A stretch of DNA of 44,532 nt from Escherichia phage vB_EcoP-CC1. Each line of letters opens with the position of its first letter. Position 1 is the first letter of the stretch. The position numbers and the translations under genes were made by a program. Below are positions 27,334 to 38,719 of the stretch, one piece after another. Under the pieces are notes generated by a model. The model did not search any database. It was not told where the DNA came from and saw only the letters and a program-made list of their open reading frames with translations. Location of the stretch: the sequence record OX457022; one strand, written 5' to 3'.

Positions 27334-28857
27334 ATGGCTAAACTAACGAGAGTCACTGACTGGCTTGTTAAGGTAAAGTCCAGACTCACTGGTGCAGTAG
27401 AGCGACTGCTTGAAGATAAGTTAAATGACACGGTTAGTGTTAAGGACTTCGGTGCTAAGGGTGACGGTGTGACAGACGACACACAAGCATTTGCTGCCGC
27501 CTCAGCCGCATCGCCTCAAGGTGTTTATGTGCCTGACGGAACATATTTATTACCAGAAGATATTAATGGCAGGTTCTATGGTTCTGGTAAACGCATCAAG
27601 GCTGTAGGTGATGGTGGTATTCCTTTTACCAATGTAGCTCAGTCACATAGTAACCTAATATTAGGATATGATGCTGCAAAGGATTACACGGACGAAGGGA
27701 AAGGCAACCAATTAGTATTACTTGGCCCAAGCTCCGGTCGTAACCTTACCACTGGTACTAACTCCATTGTGGTAGGTGTTGGTGGCCTATCGGGTGATAC
27801 ATTAGAAGATGCACTAACAGATAAATCACCTTTCACTGGTACAGAGATTATTAGCATTGGTATCAATGCTCTTAAGAAAACTACCACTGGTAACAACATG
27901 ATTGGTATTGGTCGTGATGCCCTGAACGAGTGTAAGGATGGAAGATTCAACGTAGCTATAGGTATGTCTGCTTTGCAGCAGCTACACTCTGGTGAGGCTA
28001 ACGTAGCAATAGGGCGTTCAGCCGGTATGCGTACTGGCATCTTCACTAACGAAGATGGTGTACGATTAGGCTATACAAAATGTAGCGGTAATACCTTAAT
28101 AGGTAACGCGGCTGGTCGTGAATTGAAGTCAGGTAATCATAACACCGCCGTAGGCAATGGTGCTATGCGAGGTGTCAGTTCTGATATTAATCCATATACT
28201 GGCACTCTAGAGGGTAATTTTAATACAGCTATTGGTGTTGATACCTTAAACTCCTTAGCATCTGGTGAGTTGAACACCATGATTGGCGCAAGGGCTGGGC
28301 GTAAATTACCTAGTGGCTCTGGTAACATCTTCATCGGTGCGGATGCAGGTGCAGGTATTAACATTGAAAAGTCTAACACTCTCATTATTAACAACCACAC
28401 TGGCTTACCTTTCGTAGAAGGTATTATGGATGGTGCTCAGAGTGAGAATAACTACTTACGTGTTGATGGAAGTGTAGCACCTCAGATTGATAACACAAGA
28501 ACTTGTGGTCAGTCTAGCCGTAGATGGCAGACTGTCTTTTCTACCAATGGTGTTATCCAGACATCGGATGGACGATGCAAGGATGTCTACGATATTGCCA
28601 AGACGGAGTACATGGCTGGTCTAGAGTTATCTTCTAGTATGATTAAGTTCAAATGGACAGATACTAAAGAAGATAAGTATCACTTCGGTTGTCTGGCACA
28701 AGAGGTCATGCTGATTATGGAGAAACATGGGTTAAACCCTCTGGATTATTCCCTCGTTACCTATGATGCTGAAGCAGATATGTATGGTGTTAACTATGCA
28801 GAATTGTCTTGCTTCTGTATCGCAGCAATGTCCAATCATGTACTAGGCAGTGCGTAA
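27334..28857 (+). CDS. tailspike with pectate-lyase-like beta-helix and C-terminal S74-like chaperone domain
   Basis: 507 aa from ATG 27334 (AGGAGA RBS); motif VKDFGAKGDGVTDDTQAF typical of pectate-lyase-fold depolymerases; C-terminal SDGRCKDVYDI chaperone-like motif. Confidence 0.8.
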   Translation: MAKLTRVTDWLVKVKSRLTGAVERLLEDKLNDTVSVKDFGAKGDGVTDDTQAFAAASAASPQGVYVPDGTYLLPEDINGRFYGSGKRIKAVGDGGIPFTNVAQSHSNLILGYDAAKDYTDEGKGNQLVLLGPSSGRNLTTGTNSIVVGVGGLSGDTLEDALTDKSPFTGTEIISIGINALKKTTTGNNMIGIGRDALNECKDGRFNVAIGMSALQQLHSGEANVAIGRSAGMRTGIFTNEDGVRLGYTKCSGNTLIGNAAGRELKSGNHNTAVGNGAMRGVSSDINPYTGTLEGNFNTAIGVDTLNSLASGELNTMIGARAGRKLPSGSGNIFIGADAGAGINIEKSNTLIINNHTGLPFVEGIMDGAQSENNYLRVDGSVAPQIDNTRTCGQSSRRWQTVFSTNGVIQTSDGRCKDVYDIAKTEYMAGLELSSSMIKFKWTDTKEDKYHFGCLAQEVMLIMEKHGLNPLDYSLVTYDAEADMYGVNYAELSCFCIAAMSNHVLGSA

Positions 28858-28870
28858 GCACTGCTTTTCT
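28847..28870 (+). terminator. hairpin terminator overlapping tailspike stop (GCAGTGC-GUAA-GCACTGC then TTTTCT)
   Basis: 7-bp perfect stem, GNRA-type loop containing the stop codon, U-rich tail. Confidence 0.55.
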
Positions 28871-28937
28871 CGCAACTTCCCTTGAAGCAATCTAGCGATA
28901 CCTTCAAGGGAATAGCTCAAGAAAGCAAGGAGGTTTG

Positions 28938-29087
28938 ATGCCGTTGATCAAATCAGTTAAGCAAAGTGCTGTACACCAGAACACAGAAGAACTTATTCAA
29001 TCAGGACGTGACCCTAAGCAGGCCTATGCCATTGCCAAGGATGTACAGCGTCGTGCCATGAAGAAACCTTCTGCATCTTCTGCGTAA
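28938..29087 (+). CDS. hypothetical small basic protein (49 aa)
   Basis: Below ORF-track cutoff; strong RBS AAGGAGG 6 nt upstream of ATG. Confidence 0.4.
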   Translation: MPLIKSVKQSAVHQNTEELIQSGRDPKQAYAIAKDVQRRAMKKPSASSA

Positions 29088-29221
29088 TCAGGTTAATATC
29101 TTAGTGTACACAAGGGCAAACCTATGATAGCTCACAGCACACCTCTGAGTGCCGCTCTGGATTCTATGAATTGTTCCCTGACTATCTAGGTTTGCTCTTA
29201 GTATATTACAAAGGAGGTCAC

Positions 29222-29377
29222 ATGATTTGGATCCACACGTATGGTGTAGGGTCATTCAAGAAGAATGTACTCAGGAAGATCCATGAGTCCGAGGAATCAG
29301 CCTTAGCCAGCCAGAAGGTACTTGGTGGTACTATCCAGTGCTACATGAAGAAGCCACAAGGTTTTGACTTAGTGTAA
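29222..29377 (+). CDS. hypothetical small protein (51 aa)
   Basis: AAAGGAGG RBS 5 nt upstream of ATG 29222 (ORF track begins 29171). Confidence 0.4.
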   Translation: MIWIHTYGVGSFKKNVLRKIHESEESALASQKVLGGTIQCYMKKPQGFDLV

Positions 29378-29430
29378 CCAAAGGTGGTCACAAAGTAACC
29401 AAAGTCAAAATTTTGATGTAGGCGTGTGTC

Positions 29431-29475
29431 AGCCCTCTCGCCCTCGCCCTCGCCGGGTTGTCCCCATAGGGTGGC
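29431..29475. other. GC-rich block in terminal region ((CCCTCG)n then CCCCATAGGG)
   Basis: Non-coding; CCCCATAGGG resembles the CCCCCATAGGGGG element recalled near the T7 left end; candidate terminal-repeat/packaging region. Confidence 0.4.
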
Positions 29476-30092
29476 CTGAGGGAATCCGTCTTCGACGGGC
29501 AGGGCTGATGTACTCCTTGTACTAGCTTAGTAGTACACAAGGGCTGGCCTTTTGTTTTGCCATGTACTAGCAAGGTGGAACGCTGGAGAGCGCCTAGGAC
29601 GGCCTAGGGATGGGCTTAGTGGTGGACAAGGTGATTGCCTTAGTGAAGCCTCTTAGTGCATTCCTGAGGCCATTCAGGGCGTTTATGAGATATTGACAGG
29701 GTGTGCGTGGGTGGGCTATCTGTTCGTTTCGTTCACTCCGCTTGCGCTACGTTCACTCGCTCACGTGTACCTTAGGTTGTTCCTTGATGGATAGCTTAGG
29801 TTAGCCTTAGTGGACTACCTTAGTTATAACCTTAGTGCTTATCTTAGTAATAGCTTAGTAATGTACCTTAGTAAGTCTTAGTGTCTTCTCTTAGTGATTG
29901 CACATGCAAGCATGTAAGATGCCATTAGGTCGCGGTCGGTAGACCGCTAAAGAAAGAGAATAGTAATAAGATGCAGTAGGAGGAACACCAGAAACCTAGC
30001 CAACCTAACCTATCCTAGCTCTGTATCTATTGCTTTTCCTTAGTCTAACATGTGAGACAACCTAGATTTATCTTAGTGATGATAGCTTAGTG

Positions 30093-30121
30093 TTGACAAG
30101 GCCATCTCAATGTAATACTAT
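30093..30121 (+). promoter_or_regulatory. candidate host sigma70 early promoter (TTGACA-17-TACTAT)
   Basis: Perfect -35, 5/6 -10, 17-nt spacer; upstream of early small ORFs. Confidence 0.45.
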
Positions 30122-30193
30122 TCATCACGTAGGCAGCACTGAGGTGCTTAGTAGCCAGCTAGTAAGGCATACGAAGAGACTAGTGCCTGCATT

Positions 30194-30209
30194 GCTCTTT
30201 AACAATTTG
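30194..30209 (+). promoter_or_regulatory. RNase-III-site-like element GCTCTTTAACAATTTG (copy 1)
   Basis: 16-mer repeated exactly at 30805; resembles recalled T7 R0.3 site GCTCTTTAACAATCTGG. Confidence 0.4.
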
Positions 30210-30263
30210 CTTAGTGTAACCTATGTATGCCGTGGTTAATTACTTATTGAATGAGGGTTAACT

Positions 30264-30359
30264 ATGAATTACGAAGAAATGTATGAAGACTACTTCAATT
30301 CACTTGATGAAGGAGAAGAAGCATTGTCCTTTGCTGAGTTTATGGAGGCTTTATCATGA
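30264..30359 (+). CDS. hypothetical early protein (31 aa, acidic)
   Basis: Short ORF with GAGGG upstream; first ORF after terminal region. Confidence 0.3.
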   Translation: MNYEEMYEDYFNSLDEGEEALSFAEFMEALS

Positions 30360-30532
30360 TTCTGAATAACCGTGAACTATCCATTCTCTTCACCTTGTTG
30401 TGCTATATGATTCGTAACAACGAATTACTTACAGACGATGAACTGGCACTATATCACCGTTTCCTTAACGAAGGTTGGGTCGATACAGTTAACCAGAAAC
30501 GTGACTTGATGAAGGAGTTAAGCAATGTTTAA
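30356..30532 (+). CDS. hypothetical early protein (58 aa)
   Basis: ATGA overlap with previous ORF; stop overlaps next ORF start. Confidence 0.35.
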   Translation: MILNNRELSILFTLLCYMIRNNELLTDDELALYHRFLNEGWVDTVNQKRDLMKELSNV

Positions 30533-30734
30533 ACATGAGATTTACACTGATTGCAGTAAATCGGCTAAAGCTATCTGCGATTTGTACAAGGCAGAATGCC
30601 AGACGTACAACCTCAACGATGGTACTGAGATGTTTTATCTTCAGTTTGAAAGCAAGTTATCTCACAAACGAGTGATTAACAGCCTGAATCAACACTCCTT
30701 GGAGTGGGAAGAAGTAAATAGCAATAAAGTTTAA
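30525..30734 (+). CDS. hypothetical early protein (69 aa)
   Basis: GAAGGAG RBS 8 nt upstream. Confidence 0.45.
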   Translation: MFKHEIYTDCSKSAKAICDLYKAECQTYNLNDGTEMFYLQFESKLSHKRVINSLNQHSLEWEEVNSNKV

Positions 30735-30743
30735 ATTAACTAT

Positions 30744-30772
30744 TGACAGCCACGGCATACAAGGTTACATTA
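30744..30772 (+). promoter_or_regulatory. candidate host sigma70 promoter (TTGACA-17-TACATT) upstream of ocr
   Basis: Perfect -35, 4/6 -10. Confidence 0.4.
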
Positions 30773-30804
30773 AGCATCAAGACGGCGACGTCTTTAAACA
30801 TCCC

Positions 30805-30820
30805 GCTCTTTAACAATTTG
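30805..30820 (+). promoter_or_regulatory. RNase-III-site-like element GCTCTTTAACAATTTG (copy 2)
   Basis: Exact repeat of 30194-30209, 94 nt upstream of ocr ATG, same relative position as R0.3 in T7. Confidence 0.45.
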
Positions 30821-30913
30821 GATGGTAGCTTCTTAGTCTGGATAGGTTAAACCTAGGGGATTCTCTTGAGTCTCCTATAATGTAACCTAACTAACTAAAT
30901 GAGGATTAATAAC

Positions 30914-31273
30914 ATGACTATGTCTAATATGACTTACTCTCAGGTTTACAACACCGCTCATGCTGCATTAGTTGAACGTATCTGGAATGATGCTATTGAT
31001 TGTATCGATAACGCACATGATGCAATCCATGAGGTAGCGGACAGTGCTGTACCAATCTATTATGCTGACATCTTCTCAGTGATGGCGAGTGAAGGTATTG
31101 ATCACTTCTTCGAAGACTCCGGCCTGATGCCAGATACTAAGGATGTAACGGTCGTACTACAAGCCCGTATTTATGAACAACTCACCATTGATTTATGGGA
31201 ACGTGTTCAAGATATGATTGTTGCGTACACCAATTACGCTGAGGATTCAGAAGAAGAAGAAGAGGAAGAATAA
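30914..31273 (+). CDS. ocr: Ocr (T7 gene 0.3-like DNA-mimic anti-restriction protein)
   Basis: MTMSNMTY...[42 protein letters not shown]...[14 protein letters not shown] plus poly-Glu tail matches recalled T7 Ocr nearly residue for residue; GAGGA RBS. Confidence 0.85.
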
Positions 31274-31275
31274 GG

Positions 31276-31389
31276 ATGGAAAAGCAATATAACTTTATCT
31301 TTTCAGACGGTGTGACCCTGAAGTGTTCCCTGCGTTTCGCACAGATTCGCGAGGAAGTGCTAGGAACTACATACAAACTATTTAGCTGA
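31276..31389 (+). CDS. hypothetical small protein (37 aa)
   Basis: Short ORF right after ocr; its 3' end contains promoter-like sequence at 31380. Confidence 0.25.
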   Translation: MEKQYNFIFSDGVTLKCSLRFAQIREEVLGTTYKLFS

Positions 31390-31401
31390 CACTATAAGAG
31401 A
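31380..31401 (+). promoter_or_regulatory. variant phage promoter-like sequence (ATTTAGCTGACACTATAAGAG)
   Basis: 16/17 match to SP6-type -17 to -1 but A at +1; upstream of RNAP gene. Confidence 0.4.
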
Positions 31402-31462
31402 GGGTTTAACAGGGCGCTCTTGCGAGAGTGCCCGATTAAATCAACTTAACGAGATATTAAAT

Positions 31463-31639
31463 ATGAAATACATACTGATTGCTATGTTTTCTGGCTTCAT
31501 TGGCTATGCTGGTGCTTCTTATGACAACTACAGAAGTAAGCAATTGGCTGCTGAAAAGTGGGATAAAACCTATTTTGCTTGTATGAAACAAGGTAATTTG
31601 ATGCAAGATTGCATACTTAAAGCGCACAGCGAAGAGTGA
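31463..31639 (+). CDS. hypothetical small membrane protein (58 aa)
   Basis: Below ORF-track cutoff; N-terminal hydrophobic segment ILIAMFSGFIGYAGA; weak RBS. Confidence 0.35.
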   Translation: MKYILIAMFSGFIGYAGASYDNYRSKQLAAEKWDKTYFACMKQGNLMQDCILKAHSEE

Positions 31640-31703
31640 TGAGCCTATAGCCTACTTAAGTGGGCTATGTGAACACCATTCATTAACTCAAAAGGTGACT
31701 ATT

Positions 31704-32627
31704 ATGACTACTGAAAACACCCTCCTGTCTGTTCGTGAAGCTGCAACCGCTGAGATCAAGCAACACTTAGACAATATCGGCACTTCTTACATCAAAGTTG
31801 GCGCTTGTCTTAATGAGTTACGCGGTGACTTTGAAGGTCAAAAAGACTTTTTGGCTTATGTAGAATCAGAATTTGGAATCAAGAAAGCACAATGTTACAA
31901 GCTGATGAGTGTAGCCCGTGTCTTTGAAGGCGATGATCGCTTTAAAGGCGTGGCGATGCGTGTAATGCTGGCACTTGTTCCTTTCGCTGATGAAAATATC
32001 ATCATGGAGAAAGCCGCAGAACTTGCCGCAGCGGGCAAGCTGGACACTAATGCCGTAAATGCCCTGATTGATCCTAAGAAAGAGACAAAGGCCGAGACGG
32101 TACAATCTAAGGCTGAGGCGGTAAAACCGCAGGAGAATGCGACTGAGGCCGCAGAAACTATGCAAGGACATGCGACCTTTGAGGATTTCATCTTAGAGAA
32201 GGCGAAAGAGGAATTACAAAGTGTGCCGCCAGTAAGTGAGTCGGGTAACGACGAATCCGCACCGTGGGAAGATGAAAGCAAGCCGGAAGCGCCAAAGGCC
32301 GCGCCACTGGATAACACGGCTAACACGGAGAACGCCGCTATGTCTGGCCTACTGGCACAAATTAAGGCACTGACTGAGCAATTACAGGCAGCTAACGACC
32401 GCATCGCCGCCCTAACCAGTGCACGGGAAGGTAAGAAAGCGGCTGCGCCTATGCTTCCGCAGTTTAAATCCTCTTGCTTCTACGCTCGCTTAGGCTTGAG
32501 CGCCGAGGAAGCAACGAAGAAAACAGCAGTGAATAAGGCACGCCGTGAACTGGTTAAACTAGGGTATGGTGAAGGTCATGAGGCATGGCCTTTGATCTCT
32601 GAGGCAGTAGAAGAATTAACTAAGTAA
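31704..32627 (+). CDS. hypothetical early protein (307 aa), Ala/Glu/Lys-rich C-terminal half
   Basis: ATG 31704 with AAAGG upstream (ORF track start is GTG 31695); occupies slot between ocr and RNAP; no kinase motifs recognised. Confidence 0.6.
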   Translation: MTTENTLLSVREAATAEIKQHLDNIGTSYIKVGACLNELRGDFEGQKDFLAYVESEFGIKKAQCYKLMSVARVFEGDDRFKGVAMRVMLALVPFADENIIMEKAAELAAAGKLDTNAVNALIDPKKETKAETVQSKAEAVKPQENATEAAETMQGHATFEDFILEKAKEELQSVPPVSESGNDESAPWEDESKPEAPKAAPLDNTANTENAAMSGLLAQIKALTEQLQAANDRIAALTSAREGKKAAAPMLPQFKSSCFYARLGLSAEEATKKTAVNKARRELVKLGYGEGHEAWPLISEAVEELTK

Positions 32628-32690
32628 CCTTATCGGTGGCATCTTCTTAGGTGTCACCTATTAAGGTTTCTTTCACTAGGAGTAAACAAG

Positions 32691-35318
32691 ATGCAAGATC
32701 TACACGCTATTCAGCTTCAGCTTGAGGAAGAAATGTTTAACGGCGGTATTCGTCGCTTTGAAGCAGACCAACAACGCCAGATTGCATCAGGTAATGAATC
32801 CGATACGGCATGGAATCGTCGCCTGTTGTCGGAGCTTATCGCACCTATGGCGGAAGGTATTCAGGCTTATAAGGAAGCCTACGAAGGAAAGAAAGGACGC
32901 GCACCGCGTGCACTGGCCTTCATTAACTGCGTAGAGAACGAAGTGGCAGCATATATCACGATGAAGATCGTAATGGATATGCTTAACACAGATGTAACCT
33001 TGCAAGCCATAGCAATGAATGTAGCTGATCGCATCGAAGATCAAGTACGCTTCAGCAAGCTGGAAGGCCACGCCGCCAAATACTTTGAAAAAGTTAAGAA
33101 GTCACTCAAGGCAAGTAAGACTAAATCATATCGCCATGCGCACAACGTAGCGGTAGTGGCTGAGAAGTCAGTAGCTGACCGTGACACTGATTTCTCCCGC
33201 TGGGAGGCGTGGCCTAAAGATACCTTACTGCAAATCGGTATGACCTTGCTAGAAATACTGGAGAATAGCGTATTCTTCAATGGTCAACCTGTCTTCCTCC
33301 GCACCTTGCGCACTAATGGTGGCAAGCATGGTGTTTACTACTTACAGACCAGTGAGCACGTAGGGGAGTGGGTTACAGCATTTAAAGAACATGTAGCGCA
33401 ACTTAGTCCGGCCTATGCACCTTGCGTCATTCCTCCGCGCCCTTGGGTGTCCCCTTTTAATGGTGGGTTTCATACTGAGAAGGTGGCAAGTCGCATCCGT
33501 TTGGTAAAAGGCAACCGTGAGCACGTCCGTAAGCTGACCAAAAAGCAAATGCCAGCAGTTTATAAGGCTGTTAATGCTTTACAGGCCACTAAGTGGCAAG
33601 TTAACAAAGAAGTTTTGCAGGTAGTAGAAGACGTTATCCGTCTCGACCTTGGTTATGGTGTACCTTCCTTTAAACCACTCATCGACCGCGAGAACAAGCC
33701 GGCTAACCCAGTGCCGTTAGAATTTCAACACTTGCGAGGCCGCGAACTGAAGGAAATGTTAACGCCGGAACAATGGCAAGCCTTCATCAACTGGAAAGGT
33801 GAATGCACCAAGCTGTATACCGCTGAGACTAAGCGCGGAAGTAAGTCGGCGGCAACCGTTCGCATGGTAGGACAAGCGCGCAAATACAGCCAGTTTGATG
33901 CGATTTATTTCGTGTATGCACTGGATAGCCGCTCACGCGTTTATGCGCAATCTAGCACACTCTCACCGCAATCAAACGACCTAGGCAAGGCGTTACTGCG
34001 TTTTACCGAAGGGCAGCCGCTAAATAGCTCTGAGGCGCTTAAATGGTTTTTGGTGAACGGGGCGAATAACTGGGGTTGGGATAAGAAGACTTTCGACGTG
34101 CGCACCGCTAACGTACTGGACGGCGAGTTTCAAGATATGTGCCGCGACATTGCAGCGGATCCTCTGACCTTTACTCAATGGGTAAATGCCGATTCACCTT
34201 ATGGATTCCTTGCATGGTGCTTTGAGTATGCTCGTTATTTGGATGCACTGGATGAAGGAACACAAGATCAGTTTGTGACGCATTTACCTGTTCATCAAGA
34301 TGGTAGCTGTTCTGGCATCCAGCACTACAGTGCTATGCTACGCGACGAAGTGGGTGCGAAGGCGGTAAACCTTAAACCATCCGACTCGCCTCAAGATATT
34401 TATGGAGCGGTTGCGCAGGTTGTTATCCAGAAGAACTACGCCTACATGAATGCAGATGATACAGAAACTTTCACATCTGGAAGCGTAACACTTACAGGTG
34501 CAGAACTGCGCAGCATGGCTAACGCGTGGGATATGATTGGGATCACTCGCGGCTTAACCAAAAAGCCAGTAATGACCTTGCCATACGGCTCCACCCGCTT
34601 AACCTGCCGTGAATCGGTGATTGATTATATCGTTGATTTGGAAGAAAAAGAGGCGCAGAGAGCTGTTGCCGAAGGGCGGACGGCTAATCCTGTGCACCCT
34701 TTTGATAATGACCGTAAAGACTATCTGACACCTGGTGCAGCTTACAACTATATGACCGCTTTAATTTGGCCTTCTATCTCTGAGGTTGTTAAAGCGCCTA
34801 TAGTGGCGATGAAAATGATTCGCCAGCTTGCACGATTCGCAGCTAAAAGAAACGAAGGGTTAGAGTACACCTTACCCACTGGTTTCATCTTGCAGCAAAA
34901 GATAATGGCTACCGACATGCTACGCGTATCCACTTGCTTGATGGGTGAAATCAAGATGAGTCTACAGATTGAGACTGATGTAGTGGATGAAACGGCAATG
35001 ATGGGCGCTGCCGCTCCTAACTTTGTTCACGGTCATGATGCGAGTCACCTTATTCTGACTGTATGTGACCTAGTTGACAAAGGTATTACATCAATTGCAG
35101 TTATTCATGACTCTTTCGGAACTCATGCAGGCCGTACATCAGATCTTCGTGATAGCTTAAGGGCAGAAATGGTTAAGATGTATCAAGGGCGTAACGCCTT
35201 GCAGCAATTGCTGGATGAGCATGAAGAACGTTGGTTGGTGGACACTGGCATTCAAGTGCCGGAACAAGGGGAGTTTAACCTTGAAGAGATATTAGTTTCT
35301 GACTATTGTTTTGCATAA
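32691..35318 (+). CDS. single-subunit DNA-directed RNA polymerase (SP6-type)
   Basis: 875 aa; N-terminus [32 protein letters not shown] and C-terminus ending DYCFA agree with recalled SP6 RNAP; AGGAG RBS. Confidence 0.95.
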
Positions 35319-35325
35319 TATTGAT

Positions 35326-35357
35326 AGGCCATTCCTTAGGGAGTGGCCTTTTCTTTT
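35326..35357 (+). terminator. intrinsic (rho-independent-type) terminator after RNAP gene
   Basis: Stem AGGCCATTCC/GGAGTGGCCT (one G-U), loop TTAG, then TTTTCTTTT; candidate early terminator. Confidence 0.7.
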
Positions 35358-35391: not shown

Positions 35392-35409
35392 TGTCTCACG
35401 CGTGAGACT
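35392..35409. repeat. palindrome family member TGTCTCAC-GC-GTGAGACT
   Basis: Perfect 16-bp palindrome GTCTCACGCGTGAGAC; 2 nt upstream of promoter at 35411. Confidence 0.85.
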
Positions 35410-35572: not shown

Positions 35573-35590
35573 TGTCTCACATGTGAGACT
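35573..35590. repeat. palindrome family member TGTCTCAC-AT-GTGAGACT
   Basis: 4 nt upstream of promoter-like sequence at 35595. Confidence 0.85.
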
Positions 35591-37763: not shown

Positions 37764-37924
37764 TGGAAATTATTAAACCATTATTAAATATCGGCGTTGA
37801 CATCCTATTCATGCTTATGCTAGCAAACTATGCTGCACGATATGGATTCAAGCCAGCTGTGAAACTTATCGTTGCATCTGGTTTTCTTATGTCAATGTTC
37901 TTTATTGTAACACACCTTATCTAG
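37763..37924 (+). CDS. hypothetical small hydrophobic protein (53 aa)
   Basis: Below ORF-track cutoff; TGATG overlap with primase stop; two predicted hydrophobic segments. Confidence 0.35.
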   Translation: MEIIKPLLNIGVDILFMLMLANYAARYGFKPAVKLIVASGFLMSMFFIVTHLI

Positions 37925-37940
37925 TGTATTTATCAGGGCT

Positions 37941-37958
37941 TGTCTCACATGTGAGACA
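37941..37958. repeat. 18-bp perfect palindrome TGTCTCACATGTGAGACA
   Basis: 17 nt after stop of small ORF; identical to copy at 15571. Confidence 0.9.
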
Positions 37959-37996
37959 GGCTCTTATTAAGTACATTAAATAACTGGAGATTGATT

Positions 37997-38719
37997 ATGT
38001 ATAAATTAGTATTGAATGCAGGTGATTATGTTCGTAACATCAATGAAGCCTCACGTCGTTATCGTTGCCGTGGTGTGGTTAGCTATGTAAGTGAGAACAT
38101 GTACCATGTGGAGTACAGCAACGGCATTAAACAATCTTATCATAAGAAGTTAGCACATAACTACCTTGAGAAGATTGGCGAGACAAGCAATCAATGCAAG
38201 TGTGTACATGATGAGGTTTGCGATAAGTGCAAACGTCAGGCAATTAAAGCCTTTACCTTTGCGCAACGTTATGGTTCTATGTATGGTGCTGGTCACAAGA
38301 CCGTTGCAGAAGCAGCTTGGAAGACATTACAGTTTGAGCATTCAAATGGACGACGCACCACAATTAAGAAAGAGCGCCGCAATGTCATCACTGGTAAGAC
38401 TCAAAGTGAGATGATTAAGCAATGTGGCACTGCATTAGGTGTTACACAGTTCAATACACGTGCTCTAGGTAAATCTACAGGACAAGCTATGTTTAAGATT
38501 GGTGAAGCCATGATGCACCCAAATGTACCTGTGCGAATCATGGATGTTGACCATGCAATCACAGAACATGGTACAACACGGCGTGTAGTTAATAATCATT
38601 TTGCCGACACTATAGAAGATATTATCCGTAAGCAAGGATTGAAAGGTCTTCACATCTTAAATGGTGAAGAGTTGCTGTACCTTCCTATTGTTACCGAAGA
38701 AACCTACGTGAATATCTAA
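37997..38719 (+). CDS. hypothetical protein (240 aa) with Cys cluster
   Basis: GGAGA RBS 6 nt upstream of ATG 37997; CKCVHDEVCDKC cluster; between primase and DNA polymerase. Confidence 0.55.
   Translation: MYKLVLNAGDYVRNINEASRRYRCRGVVSYVSENMYHVEYSNGIKQSYHKKLAHNYLEKIGETSNQCKCVHDEVCDKCKRQAIKAFTFAQRYGSMYGAGHKTVAEAAWKTLQFEHSNGRRTTIKKERRNVITGKTQSEMIKQCGTALGVTQFNTRALGKSTGQAMFKIGEAMMHPNVPVRIMDVDHAITEHGTTRRVVNNHFADTIEDIIRKQGLKGLHILNGEELLYLPIVTEETYVNI
38588..38609 (+). promoter_or_regulatory. weak promoter-like sequence inside coding region (ATTTTGCCGACACTATAGAAG)
   Basis: Core CACTATAGAAG intact but 3 mismatches at -13, -12, -10; probably non-functional. Confidence 0.2.

Follow-up and report, generated by a model that had tools for sequence, protein, structure and literature searches.

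A repeated 16-mer in the early region of Escherichia phage vB_EcoP-CC1 is very probably an rrn-type boxA element and not itself an RNase III site

The early region of Escherichia phage vB_EcoP-CC1 (sequence record OX457022, analyzed here as a single window of 44,532 nucleotides) carries the same 16-mer, GCTCTTTAACAATTTG, twice on the plus strand, at 30194-30209 and at 30805-30820. This raises the question of which signal is kept unchanged at two points among the first genes of the phage. An earlier note on this DNA, made from the sequence alone, matched the repeat to the R0.3 RNase III site region of T7 and suggested that early mRNA processing sites are conserved between T7-like and SP6-like lineages. 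Our analysis leads to a different answer: the two 16-mers are very probably rrn-type boxA RNA elements, i.e., Nus-factor (NusB/S10) loading sites that serve processive antitermination of early transcription by the host RNA polymerase (RNAP).

Both copies were confirmed at these positions, where they bracket three small open reading frames (ORFs) as described before, and the second copy indeed lies just upstream of ocr, 109 nt from its start (30914). No other match to GCTCTTTAACAATTTG with up to two mismatches was found on either strand of the window, for which 0.08 matches would be expected by chance, and two or more matches of this type were seen in 1 of 100 shuffles. Because the flanks differ between the copies on both sides (t/c at the 5' end and c/g at the 3' end), the repeat is exactly 16 nt long. 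Window positions 29400-31600 are 100% identical to Escherichia phage vB_EcoP-CC2 (OX638290.1), whose lineage is given as Autographiviridae, Molineuxvirinae, Vectrevirus, in the K1-5/SP6-like group. The window is a circular permutation of the OX638290 genome, and several related records start at about window position 29437; the 16-mer copies therefore lie in the left-end early region.

The first 11 nt of both copies, GCTCTTTAACA, fit the consensus GYTCTTTAANA that Baniulyte et al. 2017 (PMC5725501) derived for gamma-proteobacterial BoxA, and they are the sole two matches to this consensus in the 44.5-kb window. When degenerate extra copies were sought in the window, the only candidate was a site with one mismatch on the minus strand within the RNAP gene (34787), no more than chance would produce. 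The boxA of the Escherichia coli rrnB leader, GCTCTTTAACAATTTA, which lies just after promoter P2, is identical to the phage 16-mer at 15 of 16 positions, and the core GCTCTTTAACAAT is the same in the rrn element and the phage copies. The boxA of the rrnB 16S-23S spacer reads GCTCTTTAAAAATCTGGAT, to which copy 2 together with its 3' flank (GCTCTTTAACAATTTGGAT) is identical at 17 of 19 positions. Many copies from related phages read GCTCTTTAACAATyTGGAT, and the 3' extension AATyTGGAT is common to them and the rrnB spacer boxA. Judged by sequence, the phage copies join a leader-type core to a spacer-type 3' extension.

The earlier note had pointed to a nearly identical sequence in T7, and we located it at T7 nt 813-828 (GCTCTTTAACAATCTG), where it agrees with the 16-mer at 15 of 16 positions and lies between promoter A3 (750) and gene 0.3 (925). 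As summarized in PMC3709561 from Savalia et al. 2010, the T7 boxA is an antitermination element downstream of the early promoters A1-A3, and mutations in it render the host-RNAP inhibitor Gp2 dispensable. The nut-like sites of rrn operons have the order boxB-boxA-boxC, in which the linear boxA is dominant and bound by NusB-NusE, boxB is dispensable and boxC feeds the RNase III stem (PMC8632103). We conclude with high confidence that the two 16-mers are boxA elements homologous to those of T7 and of the rrn operons. By analogy, they would have an antitermination role in this phage as well, and it is their homology to the T7 boxA, with its mutant phenotype, that argues for NusB-NusE binding and Rho-resistant elongation.

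That T7 early leaders and rrn operons contain boxA is already established knowledge. For SP6-group phages, we found no mention of boxA in the open literature, a body of work that here does not include the original SP6 and K1-5 genome papers. In the stretches examined, no boxA and no RNase III site is marked in the GenBank feature tables of T7 (NC_001604, V01146), K1-5, SP6, or CC2. An Rfam scan of 28800-32800 at a permissive E-value covered neither copy of the 16-mer and returned only a chance match to a small nucleolar RNA (E=4).

Conservation of the element was followed in a set that combined a scan of viral contigs with loci anchored on ocr. The motif is present in both lineages, in agreement with the earlier note: among the matches listed, all SP6-like loci have two or three boxA copies and all T7-like loci have one. 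In nearly all loci examined, whether SP6-like or T7-like, boxA is found 99-114 nt upstream of the ocr ATG. K1-5 carries three copies (710, 1255, and 1467), and SP6 carries two consensus copies and a near-copy at 1536. Leader alignments show that the core G.TCTTTAACAA is invariant in SP6-like and T7-like leaders and that the adjacent spacer sequence diverges. Likewise, relatives keep the motif of copy 1 next to a completely different 5' flank. Among 33 distinct SP6-like copies, the 5' flank holds about 0.1-0.5 bits per position, and positions 12-16, which played no part in selecting the sequences, hold 1.4-1.8 bits except at the y position. The Ocr protein is 68% identical to T7 gp0.3, as against about 33% for the compared part of the RNAPs. 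The boxA-hairpin-ocr module is far better conserved between the two subfamilies than this core gene, and either lateral exchange or strong constraint on the module could account for the difference.

The scan also showed that GCTCTTTAACAATYTG occurs in at least 120 IMG/VR viral contigs (L007-L126), most of which are neither T7-like nor SP6-like. We considered that these matches might be host rrn operons within prophage calls and rejected this idea, since in no case does a 16S gene begin within the next 1.5 kb downstream. Sequence contexts that recur in these contigs, TTAGCTCTTTAACAATCTGGTCC among them, may represent temperate-phage nut sites.

The position of the two copies relative to transcription signals resembles that of the rrn element. 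Each copy follows a predicted host sigma-70 early promoter (Table 1); these 10/12 matches end 72 nt upstream of copy 1 and 33 nt upstream of copy 2, and boxA would thus appear about 65 and 27 nt into the predicted transcripts, compared to about 31 nt after the estimated P2 start for the rrnB boxA. Copy 1 is located 70 nt upstream of the first small ORF. An identical copy of the first promoter is found at the equivalent place in K1-5 (609-637), and the second is kept base for base in K1-5 and in the related locus L103. A short hairpin lies between the second promoter and copy 2, which is the boxB position of rrn leaders. A hairpin also precedes K1-5 copy 3, and in rrnB both the leader boxA and the spacer boxA have one immediately on their 5' side.

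Both boxA copies are located upstream of the first promoter for the phage RNAP (31380). The T7-type RNAP apparently does not use Nus factors (PMC5725501), and the arrangement fits this property, i.e., boxA is confined to DNA transcribed by the host enzyme. At the other end, an intrinsic terminator starts 8 nt after the stop codon of the phage RNAP gene. This gene is presumed to be the last one of the host-transcribed early unit, which plausibly ends at this terminator.

Table 1. Features of the early region in window coordinates, with the basis on which each was assigned.
Feature	Position	Strand	Basis or remark
Predicted host sigma-70 early promoter, TTGACA-17-TACTAT	30093..30121	+	10/12 consensus; predicted start about 30128
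boxA copy 1, GCTCTTTAACAATTTG	30194..30209	+	GYTCTTTAANA match; 15/16 to rrnB leader boxA
Three small overlapping early ORFs (31, 58, and 69 aa)	30264-30359, 30356-30532, 30525-30734	+	ORF list; coding sequences in OX638290
Second predicted sigma-70 early promoter, TTGACA-17-TACATT	30743..30771	+	10/12 consensus; predicted start about 30778
Short hairpin, AAGACG-GCGA-CGUCUU	30779..30794	+	Present in minimum-free-energy and centroid structures; conserved in K1-5 and L103
boxA copy 2, GCTCTTTAACAATTTG	30805..30820	+	Exact 16-mer; 17/19 with 3' flank to rrnB spacer boxA
Three-tier hairpin, 76 nt, 29 bp, internal loops	30829..30904	+	-29.7 kcal/mol, z -3.96
ocr, gp0.3-like anti-restriction DNA mimic	30914..31273	+	OX638290 annotation 'Overcome classical restriction gp0.3'
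First SP6-type phage-RNAP promoter, ATTTAGCTGACACTATAAGAGAG	31380..31402	+	Exact pattern match, 0 expected by chance
Phage single-subunit RNAP gene, 875 aa	32691..35318	+	97% identical to K1-5 gp7 'putative RNA polymerase'
Strong intrinsic terminator, 10-bp stem (6 G-C pairs) followed by TTTCTTTT	35326..35357 (stem 35326-35349)	+	Terminator scan

The repeats also mark a site of rearrangement. K1-5 and L103 share the order promoter, hairpin, boxA#2, small ORF, second hairpin, boxA#3, long hairpin, and ocr. The phage studied here is without the segment from #2 to #3, and the junction falls within the repeat itself, with the left flank of K1-5 copy 2 and the right flank of K1-5 copy 3. Judged by these flanks, copy 2 is to all appearances a fusion of the ancestral boxA #2 and #3, the small-ORF cassette between them having been deleted by recombination. 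The fused form is found in a minority of relatives, namely Raoultella phage P3a, Citrobacter phage CrRp3, and Vectrevirus PDP21P3 and PDP21P6. The #2-#3 interval in relatives ranges from 0 to about 570 nt and mostly measures about 210-570 nt; because of this variation, the repeats can be said to bracket a variable cassette slot. In K1-5 (L004), the slot between boxA#2 and boxA#3 (1271-1466) encodes about 36 aa in an ORF that is missing from the annotation and has a Shine-Dalgarno sequence of its own.

Between copy 2 and ocr, the 93 intervening nucleotides hold the three-tier hairpin listed in Table 1, whose stability was reached by none of 200 shuffles. The ocr Shine-Dalgarno sequence (GAGG, 30901-30904) overlaps with the 3' foot of this hairpin. 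The same three-tier architecture, built from unrelated upper-stem sequences, is present in SP6 (z -6.2), in the loci L152 and L154 (z about -6), and in the T7 leader (z -3.1), and the L131 leader shows it with two compensatory pairs. When five closely related Vectrevirus sequences were used to build a covariance model, it matched at full length the leaders of SP6, of the L152/L154 type, and of T7-like phages, including T7 813-927 (E about 3e-4 in a restricted search). In the covariance-model alignment, 93.5% of the cells are paired and 20 of the 29 pairs show compensatory changes, including all 10 upper-stem pairs. The covariation score, calculated on an alignment that was fitted to the model's own structure, is 0.438, compared to 0.154 for shuffles (0/500 reach the observed values) and 0.05-0.13 for slid controls. 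Plain MAFFT alignment of divergent SP6-like leaders followed by RNAalifold gave a weak consensus of -2.8 kcal/mol owing to misalignment, and conservation of the hairpin was judged instead from individual folds and from the covariance-model alignment.

Substrates of E. coli RNase III have about two helix turns and no conserved positive sequence determinant, and internal loops in them restrict cleavage to one strand (PMC1540722). With its 29 pairs, coaxial tiers, and internal loops, the hairpin at 30829-30904 has a helix of this kind, and its modeled structure suggests that it is probably an RNase III site at which the ocr mRNA is trimmed. It occupies the same place between boxA and ocr as R0.3 of T7 and shares with it the three-tier stem, the internal loops, and a tetraloop-capped upper stem. 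In contrast to R0.3, its upper-stem sequence is unrelated, and the SP6-like hairpin is a candidate known from structure only.

The covariance model additionally matches the T7-like loci L139 (2961-3075), L149 (2958-3071), and L150 (2976-3090) about 570 nt downstream of boxA. These matches correspond roughly to T7 nt 1382-1495, where we take the R0.5 RNase III site to lie, which suggests that early processing sites share a hairpin style. At window 30886-30899, TAACTAACTAA has stops in all three frames; it is invariant just 5' of the ocr Shine-Dalgarno sequence in SP6-like leaders and doubles as the 3' arm of the lower stem of the ocr-leader hairpin. A similar sequence, CTAACTAACTAACTAAGG, precedes the small ORF that follows boxA#2 in K1-5.

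With a probable processing hairpin so close by, one has to ask whether RNase III processes the early mRNA at the 16-mer, i.e., whether the repeat is all or part of such a site. Copy 2 and its T7 counterpart lie about 10-15 nt from the long conserved hairpin preceding ocr, and boxA is physically linked to the RNase III stem in rrn operons (PMC8632103). However, the 16-mer is outside the hairpin in every lineage (window 30805-30820 versus 30829-30904; T7 813-828 versus about 844-911), and copy 2 is unpaired and located 5' of it. When the sequence around each copy was folded, as the earlier note had suggested, copy 2 was found to adjoin the significant hairpin (z -3.96), whereas copy 1 lacks a significant helix (z -1.37). 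Full-structure matches to the covariance model were likewise absent for copy 1, for K1-5 copy 2, and for SP6 copies 1 and 2. Because copy 1 has no such hairpin, the 16-mer is not tied to RNase III sites. RNase III substrates are set by helix length and not by conserved sequence (PMC1540722), so an invariant linear 16-mer is no mark of them, and this particular 16-mer fits the BoxA consensus and the host rrn boxA. Given its place outside the hairpin, the missing hairpin at copy 1, and its BoxA sequence, we regard a role of the 16-mer as RNase III site as very improbable. What stands of the idea of early processing sites conserved between T7-like and SP6-like phages is the processing-type hairpin before ocr.

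Other roles can be envisaged for a boxA in this position. The copies could act mainly as translational or Rho-linked repressors in the style of the suhB 5' untranslated region, with the Nus complex looping the RNA and occluding the ribosome-binding site. BoxA upstream of protein-coding genes can repress, also from more than 50 nt away (PMC5725501), and the foot of the ocr-leader hairpin overlaps the ocr Shine-Dalgarno sequence. Yet the copies are promoter-proximal, as in rrn leaders, the genetic phenotype of the homologous T7 element is described as antitermination (PMC3709561, citing Savalia 2010), and repression of ocr would seem counter-productive, as Ocr is needed at once and abundantly to protect the entering DNA; we therefore consider such a role improbable. 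That the repeats are chiefly recombination substrates, i.e., boundaries of early-cassette modules or the remains of such boundaries, and have no RNA function would agree with copy 2 being a precise fusion of two repeats with the intervening cassette lost, and with the 0 to about 570 nt spanned by the #2-#3 interval in relatives. This explanation is very improbable in our view, since it leaves unexplained the 15-17 nt of identity to the host rrn boxA, the constant spacing of the single T7-like copy from ocr, the strict context of the copies with respect to strand and promoter, and the T7 genetic phenotype; recombination is better seen as a side effect of repeated functional sites. We give only the faintest chance to a decoy function, in which early boxA RNA titrates NusB/S10/SuhB or S1 off the host rrn operons and thereby aids the shutdown of ribosome synthesis. 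SP6-like phages do place two or three boxA copies behind strong promoters, and ribosomal protein S1 is reported to have affinity for boxA (PMC8632103), but T7-like phages manage with one copy, and any decoy effect would be a by-product of the same Nus binding that serves antitermination.

Several points weigh against the explanation given here for the 16-mer copies and the hairpin. The sigma-70 promoters are consensus matches, and a scan of the region gives no excess of such matches over shuffles. The single-strandedness of boxA is uneven across copies: in an ensemble calculation, which does not cover co-transcriptional binding, the unpaired probability is 0.94 for the core of copy 2 and 0.41 for copy 1; relatives gave values between 0.29 and 0.74, and rrnB gave 0.62. 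A boxC-like element was looked for 3' of boxA and no clear one was found. Finally, the R0.3 cut of T7, which we take to be at nt 890 (Dunn and Studier 1983), could not be confirmed in records or open papers; in the T7 hairpin (about 844-911), this position would presumably be on the 3' side.

Comparison with known systems places the phage element closest to the rrn and T7 boxA. As in the E. coli rrn operons, boxA is by prediction promoter-proximal, and copy 2 has a small hairpin just 5' and the 5' arm of an RNase III-type stem just 3' of it. The phage copies differ from the rrn element in that they precede protein-coding genes and not rRNA, in that they have no clear boxC, and in that their RNase III stem is a local hairpin, whereas that of rrn is a long-range duplex between leader and spacer. 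The T7 boxA resembles copy 2 in sequence (15/16), in its distance to ocr (112 nt in T7 versus 109 nt), and in the similar hairpin that follows, and T7 and the phage studied here probably share one boxA-hairpin-ocr module. In T7, three promoters are followed by one copy; in the window phage, each of the two promoters is followed by a copy of its own, and relatives of this phage carry three copies. Only for T7 has a functional phenotype been described.

In the nut sites of phage lambda, boxA RNA bound by NusB-NusE likewise turns the host RNAP termination-resistant (PMC8632103). The phage order is hairpin then boxA, as in rrn, in contrast to lambda, where boxA precedes boxB. Furthermore, the window boxA has the full rrn consensus, while the lambda boxA is a weaker variant. 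The boxA mechanism in the window phage is presumably independent of any phage factor. BoxA elements in the suhB 5' untranslated region and in other mRNA leaders (Baniulyte et al. 2017) share with the phage copies the consensus sequence and the location upstream of a protein-coding gene. However, these elements act less than 50 nt from the start codon, in repression or autoregulation, whereas the phage copies lie 70 and 109 nt upstream and belong to a lytic early operon where read-through is the expected need.

Taking the copies as antitermination signals, we propose the following course of early transcription. Host RNAP would start at the two early promoters while the left genome end enters the cell, and the nascent boxA RNA would be bound by NusB-NusE(S10). 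NusA, NusG, and SuhB would then join to form an rrn-like antitermination complex on the polymerase. The modified polymerase should resist Rho and pausing across the untranslated leaders, the segments processed by RNase III, and the tiny ORFs, and would quickly reach ocr and the phage RNAP gene before transcription stops at the intrinsic terminator at 35326. By analogy with T7, antitermination may also help to draw the genome into the cell. RNase III would trim the ocr leader at the hairpin 30829-30904. With a promoter followed by a small hairpin, then boxA, then the 5' arm of an RNase III stem, this region would mimic the leader of an rrn operon (boxB-boxA-boxC).

A more far-reaching scenario, which we consider unlikely, is that Studiervirinae and Molineuxvirinae, two distantly related subfamilies of the T7 supergroup, share a complete rrn-leader mimic (hairpin, boxA, and RNase III stem) that is fused to ocr and laterally exchanged. 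SP6-like phages would then have multiplied boxA to one per host promoter, the repeats would double as crossover points for cassettes, and the boxA RNA would perhaps serve as a Nus decoy.

Other repeated sequences were noticed in the window. The hexamer CTTAGT occurs 57 times compared to 29.6 expected, and 21 of these occurrences, all on the plus strand, are located within 29100-30837, the 1.7-kb genome-end and left-end non-coding region. One CTTAGT adjoins boxA copy 1 (30210), and the 5' arm of the ocr-leader hairpin contains another (30832). Three palindromes of the form GTCTCAC-N2-GTGAGAC are found at 35393-35408, 35574-35589, and 37922-37978. The third caps a long hairpin between genes (z -3.25) that is weakly matched by the leader-hairpin model (37897-38001, E 0.055) and might serve as an additional RNA-processing element or as a terminator.

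The boxA concept is already established for T7 and the rrn operons; the present finding resolves no open question and is ordinary, though neatly conserved. It corrects the reading of the conserved sequence before ocr, which would be a Nus-factor loading signal and not a nuclease site, the probable RNase III site being the neighboring hairpin. It also bears on the engineering of these K1-type phages, which are therapeutic candidates, and on the prediction of sensitivity to host nus, suhB, and rho alleles. More generally, T7-like and SP6-like phages would have in common that their early transcription hijacks the host rRNA antitermination machinery, a conserved trait that bears on models of genome entry and of early gene timing.

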